A stretch of 64,000 bases of DNA from a virus (lineage: Duplodnaviria > Heunggongvirae > Uroviricota > Caudoviricetes). Each line of letters starts with the position of its first letter. Within the stretch, counting starts at the first letter, position 1. The translations under genes were made by a program, and so were the position numbers. Location: IMG/VR virus record IMGVR_UViG_3300046047_000103; one strand, 5' to 3'. Below, piece after piece: positions 1-64,000 of the stretch. The notes under the pieces were generated by a model. That model worked only from the letters and a program-made list of their open reading frames with translations. It had not been told where the DNA came from and did not search any database.

Positions 1-3
1 ATG

Positions 4-90
4 CCCATGCTAGGAATCAGGGTCGCCGTGAACGAGGATACTCGATAGCGGCGACGGGTCCAACCAAGAATAACGGTTTCTAGCAACTGT
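4..90. repeat. ~87-bp leader-like repeat, copy A (about 88% identical to copy B at 61652..61738). Sits just upstream of the first ORF and reaches the window edge.
   Basis: Direct alignment of cccatgctaggaatcagggtcgccgtgaacgagg...ccaagaataacggtttctagcaactgt with the 61652..61738 copy. Internal inverted repeats (tgctag/ctagca, gtcgccg/cggcgac). Confidence 0.7.
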
Positions 91-781
91 GGGTACAGAT
101 GGAAGCAGTGGGACCAGATCGGGAGCGATTGAAGACATGATCATACGTACATTCCAGGAGCATGGCGTCGTCCAGCAGGCAATCGATCGTGACGGTGTCT
201 ACATGGCCACGTCAGATCTGTCCGGATGGTTGAAGAGTGATCGTGATAATCATAGCTCCATGTTCACGGACGCTTACAGGTGGATGTCCGCAACGATGGA
301 AGCGTCTGGTCTGGAGAAGCCAGCGCAAGACGCTGTTCCCATCTGGTCATGGGCGCGGATGCTCTATGATGAGTATACTGATCACGCGGTATGGAAGCCA
401 CGGAATTGGATCGGCGCCCTGCGATTCAAGTACGGGAGATGCCGTGAGCTCACGGACTGGAGTCCACGGCATCTGAATGATCTCATTCCGTTCGAGGGAT
501 GGATCAACGGATTAGATCTTATCACGCTTGACGTGCCTGTGGACAGGATGCTCTGCACTGACCTCGACGGATGGAACTACGTGCTGAACCAGTGGCCGAT
601 CTTCAATGATGATGCGAGGGAGATGGCCTATGAGCAGGGCGACCTCACTGATGATGAGGTGATGAAGACGTGGGATGAGTGCATCGTGGATCCATCTGAC
701 ATCAGCAGGCATGATGAGGTGCAGGCTTGCATGTGGACAATCAGATCTGAGGACATCGTTTCCATAAAGATCATGAAGTGA
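89..781 (+). CDS. hypothetical protein
   Basis: 230-aa ORF directly downstream of repeat copy A. No recognisable motif. Confidence 0.5.
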   Translation: MGTDGSSGTRSGAIEDMIIRTFQEHGVVQQAIDRDGVYMATSDLSGWLKSDRDNHSSMFTDAYRWMSATMEASGLEKPAQDAVPIWSWARMLYDEYTDHAVWKPRNWIGALRFKYGRCRELTDWSPRHLNDLIPFEGWINGLDLITLDVPVDRMLCTDLDGWNYVLNQWPIFNDDAREMAYEQGDLTDDEVMKTWDECIVDPSDISRHDEVQACMWTIRSEDIVSIKIMK

Positions 782-828
782 CGTCAGTGAATATCTTCAT
801 CTTGTGAGCACGATACGACGGAGGGATC

Positions 829-1233
829 ATGGGCTTGTTCGGTAAGATGCGGAAGAGGTACGACTTCAGTGACTCTCAACCGGTGACAGCCATGTATGAC
901 GCGCTTAAGATCAGCAATGAGCAGCTTGAGCGCATTGACCTGAGCGCACTGGTGAACGACGATTCGATCCATGCTGTCGGGTACGAGCTCTTCCATCTGA
1001 CAGTGAATGGCGCTGCTCCACACGCCACCGAGCAAGACGTGCAGGATCAATGGCAAGCGCTGGATCCGTCTGATCGTAACAGATTCTTTTTAAGGGCGAA
1101 GATGCTGATACTTACGGCTGTCTACAATGATCCCAGGTATTCGGGGAAGAACGCTACAGATCCGGCTGGCAATGATGATCGGCGGCGAGATCATCTGAAG
1201 GATCTCGCTAATGGTCATTCAGGGGAAGAGTGA
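829..1233 (+). CDS. hypothetical protein
   Basis: 134-aa ORF, same strand and spacing as its neighbours. Confidence 0.45.
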   Translation: MGLFGKMRKRYDFSDSQPVTAMYDALKISNEQLERIDLSALVNDDSIHAVGYELFHLTVNGAAPHATEQDVQDQWQALDPSDRNRFFLRAKMLILTAVYNDPRYSGKNATDPAGNDDRRRDHLKDLANGHSGEE

Positions 1234-1328
1234 CCCGCCCACTCATCGTTACAGATCTGCATCGTTCAAGATCTCTCCATTACGACGATACCATAGGCTT
1301 ATCTGAAGATTAGGAAAGGAGCAAACTG

Positions 1329-2006
1329 ATGACGCATTTCATGGGCGTTCTCATCAATGAGGGCGATGCCCCGGACGGATCTATTCTAGACAAGTTCAGT
1401 GAGAACAGGAAGGTTCCGCAGTACGTGTACAAGACGAAGAGCCAGTGGATCAGTGACGAGCGGAAGCGGCTGCAAGATCAGCTCGATGATGATCATGCAC
1501 TGCGGACAGATCCGTCTACAGACCGCGGATGGATCAGGCCGTTGAATGACCGGCAGATCGTTGAGATCAGGGACAAGCTCTTACAAGACGATGAAGATTT
1601 CGCCGAGAGGTTCATGCGAGAAGATCCGCGCGGGATCACGTTCGCGGACAATGGGGACTGGCTGTCCACCTATAACACTGACTCTCACTGGGACTGGTAC
1701 TCGTACGGAAGGTACTGGTATGAGGATCATGAAGACATTGATGGCATGCCGGTCGAGGAGCTTGCCAAGATCATCGGATCTTTACCTCCACGCCAGCCTG
1801 AAGATGCGGAGACTGACGCTTACATCCCACGGAACTTCATCGCTCGTGATGAGCATGGGGAGCCGCAATGGCTGGAAGACGGCCCGACCGGCTGGTTCGG
1901 AGCTCATATCGTGGAGATAGAACCTGATGATTGGAAACAGATCGTACTCGACCTGCTAGCATCACACCCTGGTGAGAGGGCATGGGGGATCGACTTCCAT
2001 ATCTGA
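1329..2006 (+). CDS. hypothetical protein (Trp-rich)
   Basis: 225-aa ORF. GGAGC-type RBS region upstream (aggaaaggagcaaactgATG). Confidence 0.5.
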   Translation: MTHFMGVLINEGDAPDGSILDKFSENRKVPQYVYKTKSQWISDERKRLQDQLDDDHALRTDPSTDRGWIRPLNDRQIVEIRDKLLQDDEDFAERFMREDPRGITFADNGDWLSTYNTDSHWDWYSYGRYWYEDHEDIDGMPVEELAKIIGSLPPRQPEDAETDAYIPRNFIARDEHGEPQWLEDGPTGWFGAHIVEIEPDDWKQIVLDLLASHPGERAWGIDFHI

Positions 2007-2553: not shown

Positions 2554-3345
2554 TTATTCTGATCTTGCCGTGGACGCATGATCCACGGTCAGTCCTAATC
2601 GTTCGATGCGGTCAATGATCTTACGGACTGTATCCAGCAGATCGTCCTCATCATGTCCATAGATCGTCGGCCATGCCGGATCGTTCGGAGGAATGCTCCA
2701 AATCTTGCGTCCGTAGACCGGCTCGGACATGGTCGGCCTCCGCCTACGATCCCTCGGCCGGACCATCTTACTCTTACCGTCGTACGGATCAGCCAGGAGC
2801 GAGATCTTCGGCCAGAACCTGCCAGATGCCAGCAGCCTGTGCCCGATCATGGAATAGCCGTCTGCTGAGATGACAGACCAGATAGCCTCGCCAAGTCTTG
2901 CCTTCACCGGCTGAGCATGGAACAGATCATCAGGGACGTCGAGCGCCCCGATGAAGTCTTCACTGACCGTCTCCGATGTCTTCATGGGAGCATACCGTGC
3001 TTTCACGATACTGCTCGCATCCTCCCACTGCTGCTTCGAGATCTTATCGGAGAGGACAGCGCTTGGTGCGATCCTCCTATACGATGTGATCGGTTCTGTC
3101 TTCAAGGTGAACGTGACCGTGAACTCATCTCCGGCATGGATAAGATCATCAGTGGCGGCATCATCCGCCGGAGCGAGCTTGACCATCCGTCCGTTCGGAT
3201 CGATGCCGGAGCCCCGCATGATGACAGTCCCGGCCGCATCGGTGACGGTCACGCTCTCATGCTTGTCCGCCTGTCTTCCAAGGATCTTGAACCCTCCGTC
3301 GACTGGCTTGAGGATCACCATCTTCCTGTCTTCACTTGCTGTCAT
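2554..3345 (-). CDS. hypothetical protein (start moved to MTASEDRK)
   Basis: The ORF track gives 2554..3411. An AAGGAGG RBS sits 7 nt before the internal ATG at 3345, which overlaps the TGA of the upstream gene. Confidence 0.45.
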   Translation of the reverse strand: MTASEDRKMVILKPVDGGFKILGRQADKHESVTVTDAAGTVIMRGSGIDPNGRMVKLAPADDAATDDLIHAGDEFTVTFTLKTEPITSYRRIAPSAVLSDKISKQQWEDASSIVKARYAPMKTSETVSEDFIGALDVPDDLFHAQPVKARLGEAIWSVISADGYSMIGHRLLASGRFWPKISLLADPYDGKSKMVRPRDRRRRPTMSEPVYGRKIWSIPPNDPAWPTIYGHDEDDLLDTVRKIIDRIERLGLTVDHASTARSE

Positions 3346-4081
3346 TAGACGCCTCCTTGCCGGATGGAACGATCGCGTCTGACAAGACCTCCAGCAGCCT
3401 GTCCCGTACATGATCGTAATCGACGTCGATCATCGTTCGGACGTCGACGCTTACCGTGTGAGGTCTTTCACCGTAGATGATCTCCTCAGGGTCGGACGGA
3501 TCCCTCCATATCTTCATTGATCCAGGATCATCATTCGATGGAGCGTCATACGCCGTCTCCCATGACGGATCGATCTGCTTCAAGATCGATCTCATAAGCA
3601 CGTATGCCGAGTCCCTAGGAACGATCACGATTCCGGTGTCTTGTCCCATGACCAGATCTGCGGTAGCGTCATCATCATGATCAACGGGGTCAAGCTTGTA
3701 TCCATTGCCATCAGATCGTATGGATCCGCGATGATCTAGAACCACTGTGATAATGTCCCCGTACTGGCTCGTGATCTTCGGGATCTTAGCAAGATCATCC
3801 ATGCTGATCATGAATCGTTCCCACCTGTCCTGGTGCGGATCGTCATCGAATCTTAGCAGGCGGGATGATCTCATGATGTCAGCATCACTAGAACCGTCGA
3901 GTCTTACCACTGATGGCAGCCTGAATATTCTTGCATTCAGATCTGTCGTCAGCGAGTAATGATACACTATCGCCCTCCCGTGCCATCCATACCAGTGGAG
4001 GACGAGTGTCTTGCTGTCTTTATCCATATGATCATGATATCTTAATCTCGCGATGAAAGCAAACGGATGCGCTGCTTTCAC
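3332..4081 (-). CDS. hypothetical protein
   Basis: 249-aa ORF, translationally coupled to the downstream gene. Confidence 0.45.
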   Translation of the reverse strand: MKAAHPFAFIARLRYHDHMDKDSKTLVLHWYGWHGRAIVYHYSLTTDLNARIFRLPSVVRLDGSSDADIMRSSRLLRFDDDPHQDRWERFMISMDDLAKIPKITSQYGDIITVVLDHRGSIRSDGNGYKLDPVDHDDDATADLVMGQDTGIVIVPRDSAYVLMRSILKQIDPSWETAYDAPSNDDPGSMKIWRDPSDPEEIIYGERPHTVSVDVRTMIDVDYDHVRDRLLEVLSDAIVPSGKEASNDSK

Positions 4082-28003: not shown

Positions 28004-29407
28004 GTGTCTATAGAGTTCATAGGGGTGGCTGCTATCGGCGTCATTGTCTTTCTGCTCGTATGGTTCTTGGTCAGCAGGTACAAGACGCCTACCATCAATG
28101 AAGCGTACATCATATCCGGCTCGACGAGCCGTGACTCGGAGGGGAACAAGTCCGTCCGCGTTCTGAGAAGTCGTGGAGGCTTCGTCTGGCCCATCTTCAA
28201 CAGGGTCGTCAGCATCTCCCTCCGTTCTCATCAGATCAGCACTGAATGCGAGGCGATCTCCAAGGATAAGATCAAGATCAAGCTCAAGGTCGTCACCACA
28301 TTCAAGGTGAATGACACCGAGGAAGACATCCGTCTTGCCGGGCAACGATTCTCCAAGCAAGAACAGCTCATGGAACCGTACGTGAAGGAGATCATTGAAG
28401 GCTCCATGCGTTCGATCGTCGGCGGCCTCTCGGTCGAGAGTCTGTTGAGTGATCGTGTCGAGTTCACGAAGCAGGTCAGAACTGAGGTCGCGGATTCGAT
28501 TGAGATCCAGGGTCTTAGACTTGATACGCTTCAGGTCCAGGACATCAGTGACCAGACCGGTTACATCGATGCGCTCGGCGCTCCGCAGGAAGCATCCGTG
28601 AAGAGGGATGCGGCGATCGCGGAGGCGAACGCTAAGCAGGAAGCCCAGAAGGCGCAGATCAGTGCTGACAAGGTCATTGCCCAGAGCCAGAAGGATCTGG
28701 CATTGCAGCAGGCTTCCATCAAGGCCGAGACCGGTAAGGCAGACGTGAACGCAGATGCCGTCAAGAATCTTGAACAGCAGGCGCAGAACAGGAAGATCGC
28801 AGAGGCCGAGGCGCTGGCCGAGGCCGAGAACGTGAAGCTTCAGAGAGTCAGGCTTGAATCTGAAGTGAACACGAAGGCCGACGCTGAGAAGTACAGGCGT
28901 CGTACTGAGGCCGAGGCGCAGGCTGAGGTCACGAAGCAGAACGCTGCCGCCGATGCCGAGTCCACAAGACTGAGCGCAGAGGCGTCCGCCAAGGCTATTA
29001 AACTTGAGGGCAATGCGAAGGCTGCCGCCGTGAGGGCGCAGGGTCTGGCTGAGGCCGAGGCGATGAACAAGAAGGCTGAGGCGTACCGTAAGTATGGTCA
29101 GGCCGCATTGCAGTCCCTGATCATCGAGAAGCTGCCGGAGCTTGCATCTGCCATCAGCAAGCCGCTTGAAGGCGCGAAGATCACGTCGGTTGGTACTGAC
29201 GCGCAGGACAGGACGTCGGGCCTTGTCACCGATCTTGCCGCCAAGCTGCCGACACTCGTGAACACGCTCACCGGTGTGGATCTTGCCGGGTCGCTTCGGA
29301 AGCTCGCTAATGGTAAGGCTGATGCTGACGCCGAGGCGCCCTCAGACAGCGCTGAATCTAAGAATGATGCTGCCGACGCCCTGGTCGAGACGACAGATGA
29401 GAAGTAG
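28004..29407 (+). CDS. SPFH/band-7 flotillin-like protein
   Basis: N-terminal TM, an SPFH core, and a long Ala/Glu/Lys coiled-coil (EAEA repeats) typical of flotillins. Confidence 0.8.
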   Translation: MSIEFIGVAAIGVIVFLLVWFLVSRYKTPTINEAYIISGSTSRDSEGNKSVRVLRSRGGFVWPIFNRVVSISLRSHQISTECEAISKDKIKIKLKVVTTFKVNDTEEDIRLAGQRFSKQEQLMEPYVKEIIEGSMRSIVGGLSVESLLSDRVEFTKQVRTEVADSIEIQGLRLDTLQVQDISDQTGYIDALGAPQEASVKRDAAIAEANAKQEAQKAQISADKVIAQSQKDLALQQASIKAETGKADVNADAVKNLEQQAQNRKIAEAEALAEAENVKLQRVRLESEVNTKADAEKYRRRTEAEAQAEVTKQNAAADAESTRLSAEASAKAIKLEGNAKAAAVRAQGLAEAEAMNKKAEAYRKYGQAALQSLIIEKLPELASAISKPLEGAKITSVGTDAQDRTSGLVTDLAAKLPTLVNTLTGVDLAGSLRKLANGKADADAEAPSDSAESKNDAADALVETTDEK

Positions 29408-57950: not shown

Positions 57951-58469
57951 TTGGCAGATCATTCCGCCGGTCGTAGAGTGAACAAGCAGATCAGGTCTAA
58001 GAGGATCACTCTGATCGACATCAATGGTAAGAACGTTGGCGTGTACGATACGGATGTGGCTCTACAGATGGCCGAACGTGATGGATACGATCTGATAGAG
58101 ATGAATGATCATCAGGATCCCCCTATCGTGAAGATCGGTGATTACTCCAGGGAGAAGTACAAGCAGCAGCAGCGTGAGAAGCAGCAGCGGAAGAGTGCTC
58201 GAGCTCAGCAGGTCAAGGAGATCAGGCTGGGTCCGAAGATCGGTGAGCATGATCTTGAGACCAAGTGCAATCAGGCGCTCAAGTTCTTGCAGAGCGGTGA
58301 TAAGGTGAAGTTCAACGTCCAGCTCCGTGGCCGTGAACGTGATCACAGGTCGATCGCATTTGACCTCATCAACAAGGTCGCCAAGTCCCTGGCCGAGGAC
58401 AGCGTGGTCTCAACGCAAGCGTCGGCTAATGGCTCGTTCGTCAGCATGACTCTCTCGCCGTTGCGCTAG
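57951..58469 (+). CDS. infC: translation initiation factor IF-3
   Basis: Matches across both IF-3 domains (RLIDINGKNVGV, DLIEMNDHQDPPIVKIGDY, VKEIRLGPKIGEHDLETK, QSGDKVKFNVQLRGRE). The ORF begins with TTG. Confidence 0.8.
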   Translation: MADHSAGRRVNKQIRSKRITLIDINGKNVGVYDTDVALQMAERDGYDLIEMNDHQDPPIVKIGDYSREKYKQQQREKQQRKSARAQQVKEIRLGPKIGEHDLETKCNQALKFLQSGDKVKFNVQLRGRERDHRSIAFDLINKVAKSLAEDSVVSTQASANGSFVSMTLSPLR

Positions 58470-58508: not shown

Positions 58509-59972
58509 GTGGAGGTGATGAGATTGATGATGAAGAATGGTAAGGTCATGATAGATGACCAAGATCTCTCCGTTGAGATCGGTGAAGCGAAGCGGCTTGG
58601 ATCGCAGTACGCGGAGTCAGATCACGATCTTGCTCTTGTTGGAGGACCGGTACGTGACCTGATGCTCGGATCGCATCCGAAGGACTTCGATATGACCACG
58701 GACGCCAGACCGGATGTCTCCGAGCGGATCTTGAAGGCGTGGGGATCGTCATTCTGGAACGTGGGTAAGAAGTACGGTACGATCGGTGCTGGCAGGGATG
58801 TCAGCAATGGTGTCCACATGGACGTCGAGGTCACCACGTACCGCAGCGATTCGTATGATGGGCGATCTCGCAAGCCTGCCGTGAAGTGGGGATCATCCCT
58901 GGAGGGTGACCTGCATCGTCGTGACTTCACCATGAATGCAATGGCCATCACCCTCCCCGGAATGAAGCTCGTGGATCCGTTCCATGGAGCGGAGGCTATA
59001 AAGAACAAGATCATCATGACGCCGGGTTCCCCGTATGACTCATTCAATGATGACCCGCTGCGGATGCTTCGTGCGGTCAGGTTCGCTGGCAAGCTTGGAT
59101 TCCATCTTGACGGCAGGGTGCTTGACGCGATCCGTGAGATGGCGCCGCGTCTGGATGAGATCAGCCGTGAACGGGTGTCTGACGAGTTGTCGAAGATCAT
59201 GCTGTCCGCCCATCCTGTGGACGCTCTGAAGCTGATGATGGATTCAGGTCTGATGGATCATGTGCTTCCTGAGTTCTCGGAGCTGAAGAGAAGTGATGCG
59301 ACGAGCCGTGGGATGCATAAGCTGAATTACGAGCATTCCCTCACGGTGCTGGAGAACGCGATCAGCATGGAGGACAGGCTCGGTAACGGGCCAGATCTGA
59401 TTCTTCGACTGTCCGCATTGCTTCATGATGTCGGCAAGGCCAGGACTCGCAGGTTCAATGGTCGCAGGAAGGTCACGTTCGACCAGCATGAATTCGTTGG
59501 TGCAGACATGATTCGGAAGCGTCTGAGGGCATTGAAGTATCCGAATGACGTGGTGAAGACCGTGAGTGATCTTATCGGACTGCATATGAGGGCTCACGGG
59601 TATGAGAGCAACGGATGGACTGATTCAGCCGTGCGGAGATTCGTGCATGAGGTTGGACCGTTGTATGATCGTCTCATGATTCTTACAAGAGCGGATGTGA
59701 CCACGTCCCATGCATCAAAAAAGGTGCGGGTGATGAAGAGCATCGACTCTCTTGAAGCGCATGTGGACAAGCTCTGGAAGATGGACGATCTGAATGCTGT
59801 CAGACCTGAGATCGATGGGAATGAGATCATGAAGATCCTTCAGATTCGACCTGGTAAGATCGTTGGCCAGTGCTATCGTCATATGCTTGAGTACAGGATC
59901 GTGAACGGTGCGGTCGGCCATGCAGCCGCGGTCCAGGAGCTGAAGAGATTCTACGCGGAGATCGCAGGTTGA
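58509..59972 (+). CDS. cca: CCA-adding tRNA nucleotidyltransferase with an HD domain
   Basis: LVGGPVRDLMLG, DFDMTTDARP, RRDFTMNAMA and LHDVGK. Confidence 0.8.
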   Translation: MEVMRLMMKNGKVMIDDQDLSVEIGEAKRLGSQYAESDHDLALVGGPVRDLMLGSHPKDFDMTTDARPDVSERILKAWGSSFWNVGKKYGTIGAGRDVSNGVHMDVEVTTYRSDSYDGRSRKPAVKWGSSLEGDLHRRDFTMNAMAITLPGMKLVDPFHGAEAIKNKIIMTPGSPYDSFNDDPLRMLRAVRFAGKLGFHLDGRVLDAIREMAPRLDEISRERVSDELSKIMLSAHPVDALKLMMDSGLMDHVLPEFSELKRSDATSRGMHKLNYEHSLTVLENAISMEDRLGNGPDLILRLSALLHDVGKARTRRFNGRRKVTFDQHEFVGADMIRKRLRALKYPNDVVKTVSDLIGLHMRAHGYESNGWTDSAVRRFVHEVGPLYDRLMILTRADVTTSHASKKVRVMKSIDSLEAHVDKLWKMDDLNAVRPEIDGNEIMKILQIRPGKIVGQCYRHMLEYRIVNGAVGHAAAVQELKRFYAEIAG

Positions 59973-61401: not shown

Positions 61402-61523
61402 CTACGGCCACCGGGTACGTCTGGACTCTCGTGGACACGCCGGCTAAGTAAGATCATAAAAAGTTTTTTGGCTACGGGTCTCAACGTTTAGAGCATATCT
61501 GCAAAAGATCTTCCTGATAGATG

Positions 61524-61552
61524 TTGCATTCATGCTAGCTCCGTGATATATT
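61524..61552 (+). promoter_or_regulatory. sigma-70-like promoter (TTGCAT, 17-nt spacer, TGaTATATT)
   Basis: Read directly from the sequence. Sits in an AT-rich region upstream of repeat copy B and the tRNA cluster. Confidence 0.4.
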
Positions 61553-61651
61553 ATCTATTGTATTTGAAAGTTAAACAACTTGAATACAAGTTCGGGTTGA
61601 GCACCGTGTTACAGACGGAACGCTCCTGGCGTCCGAGAGGCGTCAGTCAAA

Positions 61652-61738
61652 CCCCTGCTAGTAATCAGGGTTGACGTGAACGAGGATTCTCGGTAACGGC
61701 GACGGGTTTAACCAAGAATAACGGTTACTAGCAACTGT
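61652..61738. repeat. ~87-bp leader-like repeat, copy B
   Basis: About 88% identical to 4..90. Confidence 0.7.
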
Positions 61739-61779
61739 CAACGTTCATAGGGAACGCTACTGATAAGGAACTGGAGGTC

Positions 61780-61929
61780 ATGATGGCAGCATTGCGTACA
61801 GTCAAATCAATGCGGTCGGCTCTTCAGGGCCAGTGGCCGCTTCAATCAGCTATGGATTATCAGCGCCTGAGTAGCGCAACGGCGTGCCTGATTAAGCATG
61901 TCTTTAATCCAGCGAGGATGATTGCGTAA
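61780..61929 (+). CDS. possible small ORF (48-49 aa) downstream of repeat copy B
   Basis: GGAGG RBS and ATGATG start. A terminator follows immediately. Confidence 0.25.
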   Translation: MMAALRTVKSMRSALQGQWPLQSAMDYQRLSSATACLIKHVFNPARMIA

Positions 61930-61952: not shown

Positions 61953-61992
61953 AACGGCGCAATCTTATCACGGGGATTGCGCCGTTCTTTGT
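61953..61992 (+). terminator. Rho-independent terminator-like hairpin
   Basis: aacggcgcaatc-ttatcacggg-gattgcgccgtt gives a 12-bp perfect stem, then ctttgtatctg. Confidence 0.55.
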
Positions 61993-62015: not shown

Positions 62016-62089
62016 CGGGTCGTAGCCCAGCTTGGTAGGGCGCCTCGTTCGGGACGAGGAGGCCGCGGGTTCAAATCCCGCCAACCCGA
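62016..62089 (+). tRNA. tRNA-Pro (anticodon CGG)
   Basis: Cloverleaf folded by hand. D arm gccc/gggc, anticodon arm cctcg-ttcggga-cgagg, T arm gcggg-ttcaaat-cccgc. One C.A mismatch in the acceptor stem. No encoded CCA. Confidence 0.7.
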
Positions 62090-62180
62090 CACGCCGTGGG
62101 AACACGATTGTCAACGACCGTGTTATCATGGATAACGCCGCGCTTCACGGAGCGTCGATAACTTAAGAATGCACCATCAA

Positions 62181-62254
62181 CGGGATGTAGCGCAGCTTGG
62201 TAGCGCGCTTGCTTTGGGAGCAAGATGCCGCAGGTTCGAATCCTGTCATCCCGA
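62181..62254 (+). tRNA. tRNA-Pro (anticodon UGG)
   Basis: Acceptor cgggatg/catcccg is a perfect pair. Anticodon arm cttgc-tttggga-gcaag. T arm gcagg-ttcgaat-cctgt. Confidence 0.75.
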
Positions 62255-62792
62255 CGATGATCGCCTGATTCTCGTGACTGACTGATCGAGTGACGCTCGT
62301 GAAGATCAGCCGCGATGGTGATCTGAATAACTGAATACAGAACTGCTCGCACCAGTTGGAAGCAAAGTGCGCGACGGCCCGGGTACCGGAATGTGAAAGA
62401 ACTCACCCTGCTTGGTCACGAAGATCACCATGTAGTCGATGGTGCAGTGACGGAGCGCCTGAATACAGGATCGAGCATGGGGAAGCCATCGCCCTGATTC
62501 TTGAAGGTCCGTATGGATCTGATGGAGATGTACATTGTACGTCAGCAACGCGATGATAACTCATGAACGGGATTACCAGCGTCATTCATGGAATGTTGAC
62601 GACCCGTAGACATAAACAAGTTCCTTCAGATTATCTTCAAAACGATGCAGATCTGCGGTCGGTGCGATGCAGATCTGAGGTCGTCGTCCCACCGGTGAGA
62701 TGCACCGGCAACCGTTGATGATGCTGTGACCGCATCATTGACAGCACATGTGGTCATCGTCGTGCTGGCGGACGTGAAACGCCAGTTCTTAT

Positions 62793-62867
62793 TCCCCGGG
62801 AGCAACCTTCGGCGGCTGCGATCGACTGTTAATCGATAGAGAGCTGGTTCGACTCCAGTCCGGGGAG
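62793..62867 (+). tRNA. tRNA-Asn (anticodon GUU), with an atypical D arm
   Basis: Acceptor tccccgg/ccgggga. Anticodon arm atcga-ctgttaa-tcgat. T arm gctgg-ttcgact-ccagt. The D region is 2 nt longer than canonical. Confidence 0.55.
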
Positions 62868-63069
62868 CGATGGTTGAAAAGGGCGAAGATTGTTAAAAGA
62901 TTGCTCATCATTCTGAATCCACGTGGTAGCTCCTCGTGGACGATGATAGGAAAGTCCGGAATCGAAAACTGATGACGATCATACTCTGGTCAATGTGCCA
63001 TACAATCGGGAGGTCCATATCGTAATTCAGCGAGGCCTAGCGAGTAATTGACCTCAAGGTCCATCCAAT

Positions 63070-63146
63070 GCTTTCATGGCCCAATCGGCAGAGGCGCAGG
63101 GCACACTGCAGACCTGTTCATACTGGTTCGACTCCAGTTGGAAGCA
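63070..63146 (+). tRNA. tRNA-like element with a non-canonical anticodon region (possible pseudo- or unusual tRNA)
   Basis: Good acceptor (gctttca/tggaagc) and T arm (actgg-ttcgact-ccagt), and a D arm of the Leu/Ser type (ccaatcggcagaggc). No 5-7-5 anticodon hairpin can be drawn; the best fit is gcagg-gcacactgcaga-cctgt with a 12-nt loop. Confidence 0.3.
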
Positions 63147-63259
63147 CGCAGTATCAGTAGGCTATGAGCTGGCAGCGTGACGCAAGTCATCTTGGTTATC
63201 TGTGACCACCAGCGAGCTGAATGCAATAGCAGACGGGTGAGTGCAAGGCTCACCATCAT

Positions 63260-63344
63260 GGATGATTCGCATAGAGGCCTAGTGCACTTGTCTTGAAAAC
63301 AAGAGTGGGTCACACCACCGGGGGTTCGAATCCCTCATCATCCG
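63260..63344 (+). tRNA. tRNA-Ser (anticodon UGA), type II
   Basis: Acceptor ggatgat/atcatcc is a perfect pair. 3-bp D stem. Anticodon arm cttgt-cttgaaa-acaag. Long variable arm gtgg-gtcaca-ccac. T arm ggggg-ttcgaat-ccctc. Confidence 0.75.
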
Positions 63345-63454
63345 CGACCCGTACGTTGGGTCCATCTGGCGACACGATGGATTGGCGGTCCATCTTCTCC
63401 TGGCGGGGGATAGCCGGTTGATGTGATCGCATACGGATTGCATCGCATACAGAT

Positions 63455-63539
63455 GCCCTCATGGCTGGAATAGGTAGACGCGGACGGCTCAAACCCGTCT
63501 CCCGTAATGGGGATCTCGGTTCGACTCCGAGTGAGGGTA
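63455..63539 (+). tRNA. tRNA-Leu (anticodon CAA), type II
   Basis: Acceptor gccctca/tgagggt. D loop ggaataggtagac. Anticodon arm gacgg-ctcaaac-ccgtc. Long variable arm. T arm ctcgg-ttcgact-ccgag. Confidence 0.7.
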
Positions 63540-63804
63540 CGACGAACACATCGGGCGGCTTAATCACCCGTCCGGTCGTGGGCATACATATGTCGCGCGT
63601 GGACGTGATTGATCCACGTGGATAGCCCGTTGCCAGGCATGTCCCGGCGGAAGTTTGATGCAGATTCTGCGTAGTTCGTCTTCCGTTGGGATCACTTGAA
63701 GACAGGTGCGGCCCGTTGGCTGCGGTGGAAGTGGGGTCCGAGTACCCAACGGTACCGGTTAGACTCCGGCTCCGGCGCGTGGGAACTCATCCATCTCCAT
63801 ATCT

Positions 63805-63878
63805 GCTCTCTTAGCCCAATTGGTAGAGGCGATAGACCAAGGATCTATTCAGTGCGGGTTCGAGTCCCGTGGAGAGCA
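63805..63878 (+). tRNA. tRNA with an unusual anticodon loop CCAAGGA (apparent anticodon AAG, with C at position 33)
   Basis: Acceptor gctctct/ggagagc. Anticodon arm ataga-ccaagga-tctat. T arm gcggg-ttcgagt-cccgt. Confidence 0.45.
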
Positions 63879-64000
63879 CAGATCTCATGACATCCTTACG
63901 GATGTCCTCTGAGATTCAGGGTCGATTCACTGTGGTGGTGATGAACATGCTCAAGGCCCGTCATGCAAGCATAGGAGTATGGAGCGAAGTTCCTATGTGG

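Follow-up and report, generated by a model that had tools for sequence, protein, structure and literature searches.

Repeated structured sequences in a huge phage as probable remnant right ends of an IS607-family transposon

The structured repeat occurring twice in the 64,000-nt stretch of phage DNA analysed here, i.e., the window, very probably corresponds to remnant right ends of a transposon of the IS607 family, encoding a serine-recombinase TnpA and an RNA-guided nuclease TnpB, and not to a regulatory leader. The homology of the repeat with the 3' end of tnpB and the right end of such an insertion sequence (IS), as well as its sharp 3' boundary, is directly observed. By analogy with characterised systems, the corresponding RNA would be made, bound in trans by TnpB and used to guide cleavage, and the right-end DNA would, from the biology of the family, be a substrate of TnpA; we infer the role of the RNA from architecture and homology. 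This kind of element, namely an IS607-family right end with an omega-RNA scaffold, is already known, the scaffold being new in having no Rfam family and its TnpB in being long and divergent. What is also new here is that the copies found in huge phages are TnpB-less derivatives, which keep a promoter-bearing left end and the complete scaffold.

The preliminary description of the window reported an 87-bp repeat at positions 4..90 and 61652..61738, and these two copies (A and B, respectively) are indeed 88.5% identical over 87 nt without any gap. They share the 3' terminus AGCAACTGT and the nested inverted repeats described at that stage, namely an outer stem GCTAGNAATC/GGTTNCTAGC and an inner stem GTCGCCG/CGGCGAC, the latter being imperfect in copy B. 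A 28-base core pattern matches two sites in the window, both corresponding to the repeat copies, where 0.00 would be expected (100 shuffles). While the repeat is real, its length had been underestimated, as comparison with other contigs gives a unit of 148 nt, complete in copy B; copy A had been suspected of extending past the window edge and is effectively only the last 90 nt of the unit, truncated by the start of the window. Both statements follow from the alignment of a third copy (C), which is 88% identical to copy B over 148 nt and 94.5% identical to copy A over 91 nt. Copy C was the single extra copy retrieved by a gapped pattern scan of IMG/VR, where it lies in the contig of a related 420-kb phage; exact and gapped pattern scans for the element returned it as the sole match in IMG/VR and gave none in metagenome_contigs and genome_contigs. 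Further copies thus exist elsewhere, i.e., copy C and a fourth one (D) on the contig L024 described below, whereas none was found in the window or the next 6 kb of the genome. A search with R1, a covariance model built from copies A, B and C, likewise detected no further copy in the window, in these next 6 kb or in about 150 kb of related loci, and megablast and blastn searches with window segments found no relatives among GenBank phages.

When the four copies (A, B, C and D) are aligned, similarity ends precisely after ...CAACTGT in all of them, and the flanks beyond are unrelated, namely a DUF3841 gene (copy A), a short open reading frame (ORF) and a tRNA array (copy B), a CRISPR leader (copy C) and AT-rich intergenic DNA (L024). 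Against the right end of the full-length L024 IS, copy A shows 96.7% identity over its 90 nt; copy B is 88% identical to both L024 2302..2447 and copy C, which puts it at a divergence of about 12% from the intact IS. Between the window phage and the phage carrying copy C, orthologous coding DNA is only 68-76% identical, to be compared with 88% between copies B and C, and the element is therefore either unusually conserved or recently transferred.

The source of the repeat was reached through a 63-aa ORF located just 5' of copy C, an 84%-identical relative of which is present on L024 (JGI Ga0455790_014614, 2762 bp), a contig obtained from the metagenome that also yielded the 420-kb phage. This contig is a complete IS of the IS607 family, with overlapping tnpA and tnpB genes (Table 1). 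Its TnpB exhibits the motifs GFDIG, AVEDL, CPAC/CGAC (two CxxC pairs) and DKDDAAG, of D/E/D type, and scores below the curated NCBIfam cut-off for guided_TnpB; its best relatives of solved structure are Cas12f and TnpB. The nearest annotated relative, at 26% identity, is a 552-aa TnpB-like protein paired with a recombinase on a Bifidobacterium longum plasmid, in which the RNA model gives no match, and IMG/VR contains no close relatives of the L024 TnpB. The element copy of L024 spans the last 46 codons of tnpB, the TAG stop (within GGTTTCTAGCAACTGT) and six more bases, after which AT-rich DNA begins. On inspection, the IS lacks terminal inverted repeats, its left end ATTCATTAGATACC and right end ...TCTAGCAACTGT not being reverse complements of each other, and there is no target duplication around it. 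The trinucleotide TGT precedes the three clear left-end junctions, and the right end also terminates in TGT. Positions 1..290 of L024 contain a tandem left end, where a first left end followed by 43 tnpA codons is broken after ...TATGT by a second, complete copy; the IS was apparently inserted into a copy of itself.

Compared with L024, the elements of the window lack their genes. Searching the window by tblastn with the L024 proteins gave no TnpA and, for TnpB, only residues 504-549 in copy B and 526-549 in copy A; as such, these copies are not autonomous, having no tnpA and tnpB of their own, with the caveat that the window starts within copy A. No source of TnpB was found in 70 kb of the window phage. 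Upstream of copy B, positions 61527..61554 match the left end/tnpA promoter region of L024 at 21 of 28 bases, a score equalled by 4 out of 2000 shuffles. From this sequence, copy B looks like a miniature IS of about 215 bp, composed of a degenerate left end with a promoter and of the scaffold. In copy C, a left end and the first 37 codons of tnpA are joined, out of frame, to the final 87 codons of tnpB and the right end. Copies B and C are deletion derivatives, and copy A may be the right end of a longer or full-length IS lying outside the window. The "good sigma-70-like promoter" formerly credited to copy B, namely TTGCAT-17-TATATT, shows 8 matches out of 12 to the consensus and is not listed by a consensus scan; since it resembles the left-end (tnpA) region of the IS, it belongs to the mobile element and not to a tRNA operon. 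Other readings of the repeat were rejected: (i) protein-coding window copies on the + strand, given stops in all three frames of copy A (inspection) and a stop in the tnpB frame of copy B, (ii) a tRNA-like or tmRNA nature, with no ARAGORN call at the copies, and (iii) a template/variable repeat (TR/VR) pair of a diversity-generating retroelement, the mismatches not being adenine-specific.

Table 1. Features of the window and of the IS-bearing contig L024 (positions are those of the window unless L024 is given).
Feature	Position	Strand	Description
Copy A	1..90	+	IS607-type right end / putative omega-RNA scaffold, positions 59-148; R1 108.7 bits, 5' truncation flagged
tnpB relic in copy A	9..83	+	last 24 codons and TAG, frame intact; 95.8% identity (tblastn); ARNQGRRERGYSIAATGPTKNNGF, stop
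Flank of copy A	91..110	+	would-be guide of an omega-RNA read through from copy A
Left-end-like region of mini-IS B	61522..61554	+	TGT 61522..61524; TTGCAT (61524..61529)-17-TATATT (61547..61552)
Copy B	61591..61738	+	complete 148-nt right end / putative omega-RNA scaffold; R1 187.1 bits
tnpB pseudogene relic in copy B	61591..61731	+	codons 504-549, 74% identity, in-frame TGA; FGLSTVLQTERSWRPRGVSQTPASNQG, stop, RERGFSVTATGLTKNNGY, stop
Stem-loop 1 (candidate nexus)	61599..61625	+	GAGC-A-CCGU / loop GUUACAG / ACGG-AAC-GCUC; RNAfold, RNAalifold
Stem-loop 2	61626..61646	+	CUGGCGU / CCGAGAG / GCGUCAG
Stem-loop 3	61656..61733	+	11-bp outer stem, inner hairpin, conserved single-stranded GGGUNNAACCAAGAAUAAC
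Flank of copy B	61739..61758	+	CAACGTTCATAGGGAACGCT; would-be guide of an omega-RNA read from copy B
49-aa ORF after copy B	61780..61929		GGAGG ribosome-binding site
Terminator-like hairpin	61953..61986		14-bp stem; 30 nt before the first tRNA
tnpA	L024 286..831		HTH_17/MerR and Resolvase; NCBIfam transpos_IS607 E 1.2e-31, 109.7 bits (cut-off 110)
tnpB	L024 791..2440		549 aa; Cas12f1-like_TNB E 1e-12, guided_TnpB E 1.2e-14
Element copy in L024 (copy D)	L024 2297..2449		R1 182.6 bits; overlaps tnpB

The repeat is predicted to fold preferentially as + strand RNA, with -44.1 kcal/mol (z -5.9) against -32.3 for the - strand in copy A, and -28.3 against -22.1 kcal/mol in copy B; the + strand folds better because its G-U pairs become C-A mismatches on the other strand. 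For the complete copy B (61591..61738), the value reaches -54.1 kcal/mol (z -2.7). The repeat cassette is structured and non-coding, and is probably transcribed from the + strand. RNAfold and RNAalifold agree on three consecutive stem-loops for copies B, C and D. In the first one, all eight stem pairs are invariant among the copies that include them, and its loop ACAG (61611..61614) is complementary to the terminal CUGU (61735..61738), the four pairs of this candidate pseudoknot being likewise invariant, hence showing no covariation. In the second one, two pairs are altered on both sides between copy B and copies C and D, i.e., U-A to C-G and G-U to U-A, and one more pair is so altered in the outer stem of the third (G-U to U-A). 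Covariation across copies is only suggestive: 98.7% of the cells are paired with three both-side changes, but the set comprises four sequences with one divergent lineage, and 16-40 of 500 shuffles equal it. The element region is also protein-coding in the intact IS, which could alone account for part of the conservation. At the gathering threshold, Rfam found only tRNAs over the whole window and nothing at either copy, and up to an E-value of 10 nothing relevant, including no RAGATH-18, in the region of copy B and the L024 copy; lacking a match in Rfam, the scaffold lies outside any curated omega-RNA family.

As regards the genome context, the window is identical to the JGI metagenome contig Ga0455797_000015 (349,703 bp) over all stretches compared, and the phage, a huge one of about 350 kb, encodes a class I ribonucleotide reductase, a primase, a clamp loader, an initiation factor IF3 and a CCA-adding enzyme. 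The genes for IF3 (57951..58469) and the CCA-adding enzyme (58527..59972) form a pair conserved in related phages, and an SPFH/flotillin-like protein is encoded at 28004..29407. The element interrupts assemblies: the first base of the JGI record corresponds to window position 92, one base past the last position of copy A common with copy C, that of two Logan contigs assembled from separate samples corresponds to position 63, and two independent others end exactly at 61738. Such breaks point to a dispersed multicopy repeat with further A-like and B-like copies in those samples, and IS copies would explain why independent assemblies of the window phage break at these coordinates. The window begins 91 nt before the first base of Ga0455797_000015, a contig carried by five samples, and given this 91-nt extension it must derive from a different assembly, or a different sample, of this phage.

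Downstream of copy A lies the DUF3841 gene (89 or 137..781), the product of which has no relatives in IMG/VR; for a neighbouring 292-aa protein, the protein database yields no match beyond the JGI call of the gene itself. Copy B sits within a divergent intergenic region, and nothing is on record for the short ORF that follows it. By eye, a promoter-like site, TTGCGC-18-CATAAT, overlaps the terminator-like hairpin at 61953..61986. Beyond, a giant tRNA array extends from window position 62016 to 64000 and further to about window position 69,900 (13490..21370 of contig L021), on the + strand throughout; 7 of its tRNA genes fall within the window, the whole array counting at least 38, and gene calling places no protein gene among them. 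A single strong terminator-like hairpin is present in the array, and strong consensus promoters are absent. ARAGORN calls the tRNA-like gene at 63070..63147, the anticodon loop of which has 8 nt, as "tRNA-???, anticodon actg", and the Rfam tRNA model gives it 36.5 bits; it may be a four-base-decoding or otherwise unusual tRNA.

Downstream of copy C, at a distance of about 105 nt, begins a CRISPR array whose repeat is I-E-like. In the same phage, a second array next to cas1/cas2-like ORFs (L014) has the same 94-nt leader without the element. By eye, a promoter-like sequence, GATGCTTGATAT.TTAATAT, directly adjoins the leader of one array and lies upstream of the mini-IS at the other; since promoter and leader adjoin in the former, mini-IS C looks inserted between them in the latter. 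This 420-kb phage (IMGVR_UViG_3300044557_000292, JGI Ga0455790_000002) has two CRISPR arrays with the I-E-like repeat GTATTCCCCGCGTTGCGGGGTTGAACC, namely one of 30 repeats beside the cas1/cas2-like ORFs and one of 22+2 repeats with an internal 272-aa ORF (L011 1..608, L015 11670..13420 and L014 1128..2980). At the site of the mini-IS and second array, which occupy about 3.1 kb in this phage (L011 reverse 2740..3982 and L015 reverse 1..1880), a 98%-identical strain from the window's own metagenome (L018 13605..14645) carries a CHAP-domain gene, as does the window phage; this exchange of a CHAP gene and a mini-IS plus array is a recent cassette replacement. No CRISPR array was found in the window, and a CRISPR leader was ruled out as the identity of the repeat given this absence, the L014 leader without the element and the distance of about 105 nt between copy C and the first repeat. 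A 12-mer, GGTCTCAACGTT, common to the DNA upstream of copy B and the end of the CRISPR leader was dismissed as being at chance level by our own estimate.

Taking the repeat as an IS607-family right end, the following mechanism can be proposed from what is known of related elements. As DNA, the 148-bp stretch would serve TnpA as right-end substrate. As RNA, it would form the scaffold of an omega-RNA, also called reRNA, the guide of which would be the flank of about 16-20 nt following ...CAACUGU. Loaded with this RNA, TnpB would cut insertion-free copies of the genome at a site composed of the adjacent motif and a match to the guide, and repair of the cut DNA would reinstall the element. The location of copies ahead of genes would then reflect insertion sites and not a regulatory design.

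How much of this activity may persist in the window is a separate question, and the view that the copies are inert debris, i.e., pieces of dead insertion sequences that are decaying and no longer function as DNA or RNA, is possible though not favoured. It accords with the in-frame stop of copy B, its divergence of about 12% from the intact element and one broken pair in its inner stem, with a window devoid of tnpA and tnpB, and with the fact that recent transfer without selection could explain an identity of 88% between copies B and C next to 68-76% for the flanking genes. However, copy B retains exactly the 148-nt scaffold together with a promoter-bearing left-end-like piece, and the substitutions it carries in stem-loop 2 and the outer stem of stem-loop 3 are compensatory. 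L024, from a metagenome of the same JGI numbering series, moreover offers a TnpB that appears intact together with a scaffold of 97% identity, and the ends of the Logan contigs point to additional A-like and B-like copies in the samples concerned.

At the opposite end of the range, TnpB-less mini-elements combining a left-end promoter and a complete scaffold, such as B and C, might be stand-alone guide-RNA genes kept in huge phages or, alternatively, an outward-reading cassette co-opted to drive or protect transcription of such long, untranslated arrays; this is a speculative proposal to which we grant a rather low probability. If true, a TnpB encoded elsewhere in the phage or by the host would load the RNAs of the mini-elements, and co-infecting phages without the insertion would be cut, resulting in homing of the marked locus, i.e., the tRNA array or the CRISPR array.

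Much less plausible is a processive antitermination RNA of the HK022 put, EAR or canT type heading long untranslated operons to let RNA polymerase pass the terminators, possibly as an exapted transposon end. Copy B does head a unit with a terminator-like hairpin of 14 bp (61953..61986) followed by at least 38 tRNA genes without strong internal promoters, copy C heads a CRISPR array of 22+2 repeats, HK022 too has two similar promoter-proximal RNA copies per genome (PMC9378689), and CRISPR arrays are known to require antitermination (PMC7665894). Yet transposon origin fully accounts for the sequence, the boundary and the distribution of the copies, the other CRISPR array of the phage carrying copy C shows the leader but lacks the element, copy A lies ahead of ordinary protein genes and no terminator occurs there within 3 kb, copy D is also without such a context, and Rfam reveals no likeness to the put, EAR or boxA families. 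A put-like antiterminator for untranslated arrays was abandoned once the ORF upstream of copy C had led to the full-length IS.

Equally improbable is the reading originally put forward, where the repeat would be a 5' leader or cis-regulatory cassette for downstream genes, e.g., riboswitch-like, stabilising or acting on translation. Copies B and C do lie 35-40 nt 3' of -10-like TATAT(T/C)AT boxes and 5' of transcription units on the same strand, and the predicted fold favours the + strand. The repeat is nonetheless no 5' leader because the identical sequence in L024 is the coding 3' end of tnpB together with the right end of an IS607-family element, followed by AT-rich non-genic DNA. [quoted passage not shown] Least credible of all are terminal redundancy, a signal at the genome end and an artefact of assembly. 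In their favour, copy A opens the window, and the JGI contig that matches the window identically begins immediately past this copy. As rightly argued before, however, the copies are only 88% identical with unrelated flanks. Copy B is moreover internal and assembled identically in JGI and Logan data, and the assemblies break at differing points of the element (63, 92 and 61738), as at a dispersed repeat and not at one fixed physical end.

With the remnant right ends of an IS607-family element as the preferred explanation, the apparent leader ahead of the 38-tRNA array would be transposon debris, and for this reason copy B would be unfit for modelling the regulation of the tRNA array or of genes. 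An uncatalogued omega-RNA scaffold would be added to those known, together with a divergent TnpB of 549 aa and an apparent adjacent motif ending in TGT, a pair that may interest those mining for compact RNA-guided nucleases. IS607-type elements would also move among huge phages, one insertion having taken place between a phage CRISPR promoter and its leader.

The closest known systems include the IS607 family (Chen et al., 2018, PMC6188088), with which the element shares a serine-recombinase TnpA with an N-terminal MerR-like HTH, an overlapping downstream tnpB and, by inspection of the L024 IS, the lack of terminal inverted repeats and target duplication. It differs by its huge-phage setting, by phage copies that are internal-deletion or miniature forms, and by a TnpA just under the family cut-off (109.7 vs 110). 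An IS607 element is reported to need no more than 40 bp at its left end and 60 bp at its right end to be excised, and in IS607 elements core nucleotides are common to the adjacent motif and the end of the scaffold (bioRxiv 10.1101/2023.11.20.567912). This is paralleled here, the UGU at the end of the present scaffold equalling the TGT before the left end, and TGT being also found before the left-end-like piece of copy B.

Regarding the RNA, the reRNA of the ISDra2 TnpB consists of about 150 nt from the 3' end of tnpB and the right end, with a flank-derived 3' guide of about 16 nt (Karvelis et al., 2021, PMC8612924), and in characterised TnpB systems such an RNA directs the nuclease to the empty donor joint, which is cut. 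Scaffolds of IS605 and IS607 elements form three consecutive stem-loops, the first loop pairing with the 3' end of the scaffold (bioRxiv 10.1101/2023.11.20.567912). [quoted passage not shown] Unlike known TnpB omega-RNAs, it has no sequence or covariance-model match to curated families; unlike known TnpB systems, its boundary motif is TGT and not GG/TGGG, it goes with a long (549 aa), highly divergent TnpB, and the window copies are devoid of tnpB. The RAGATH-18 reRNAs (Cell Res 2024, PMC11061315) similarly are conserved structured RNAs overlapping or just downstream of an IS607-type tnpB, where they act as guide scaffolds, but Rfam up to an E-value of 10 gave no RAGATH-18 match on copy B or the L024 copy, and the scaffold is of a different class.

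The putL/putR sites of HK022 (PMC9378689) bear a resemblance in being two similar structured RNA copies per phage, located near promoters and before long operons. Put RNAs, however, have about 70 nt, two stems and no link to a transposon (PMC9378689), whereas the element is a tnpB 3' end and IS right end. Lastly, as in MITE/PATE-like elements and IStrons lacking a full tnpA, the ends are kept and the genes deleted, so that mobilisation and a nuclease would be needed in trans. The difference with MITE/PATE-like elements is that the retained right end is the whole putative omega-RNA scaffold, joined to the left-end promoter, and from its sequence such a mini-element looks like a stand-alone guide-RNA gene.
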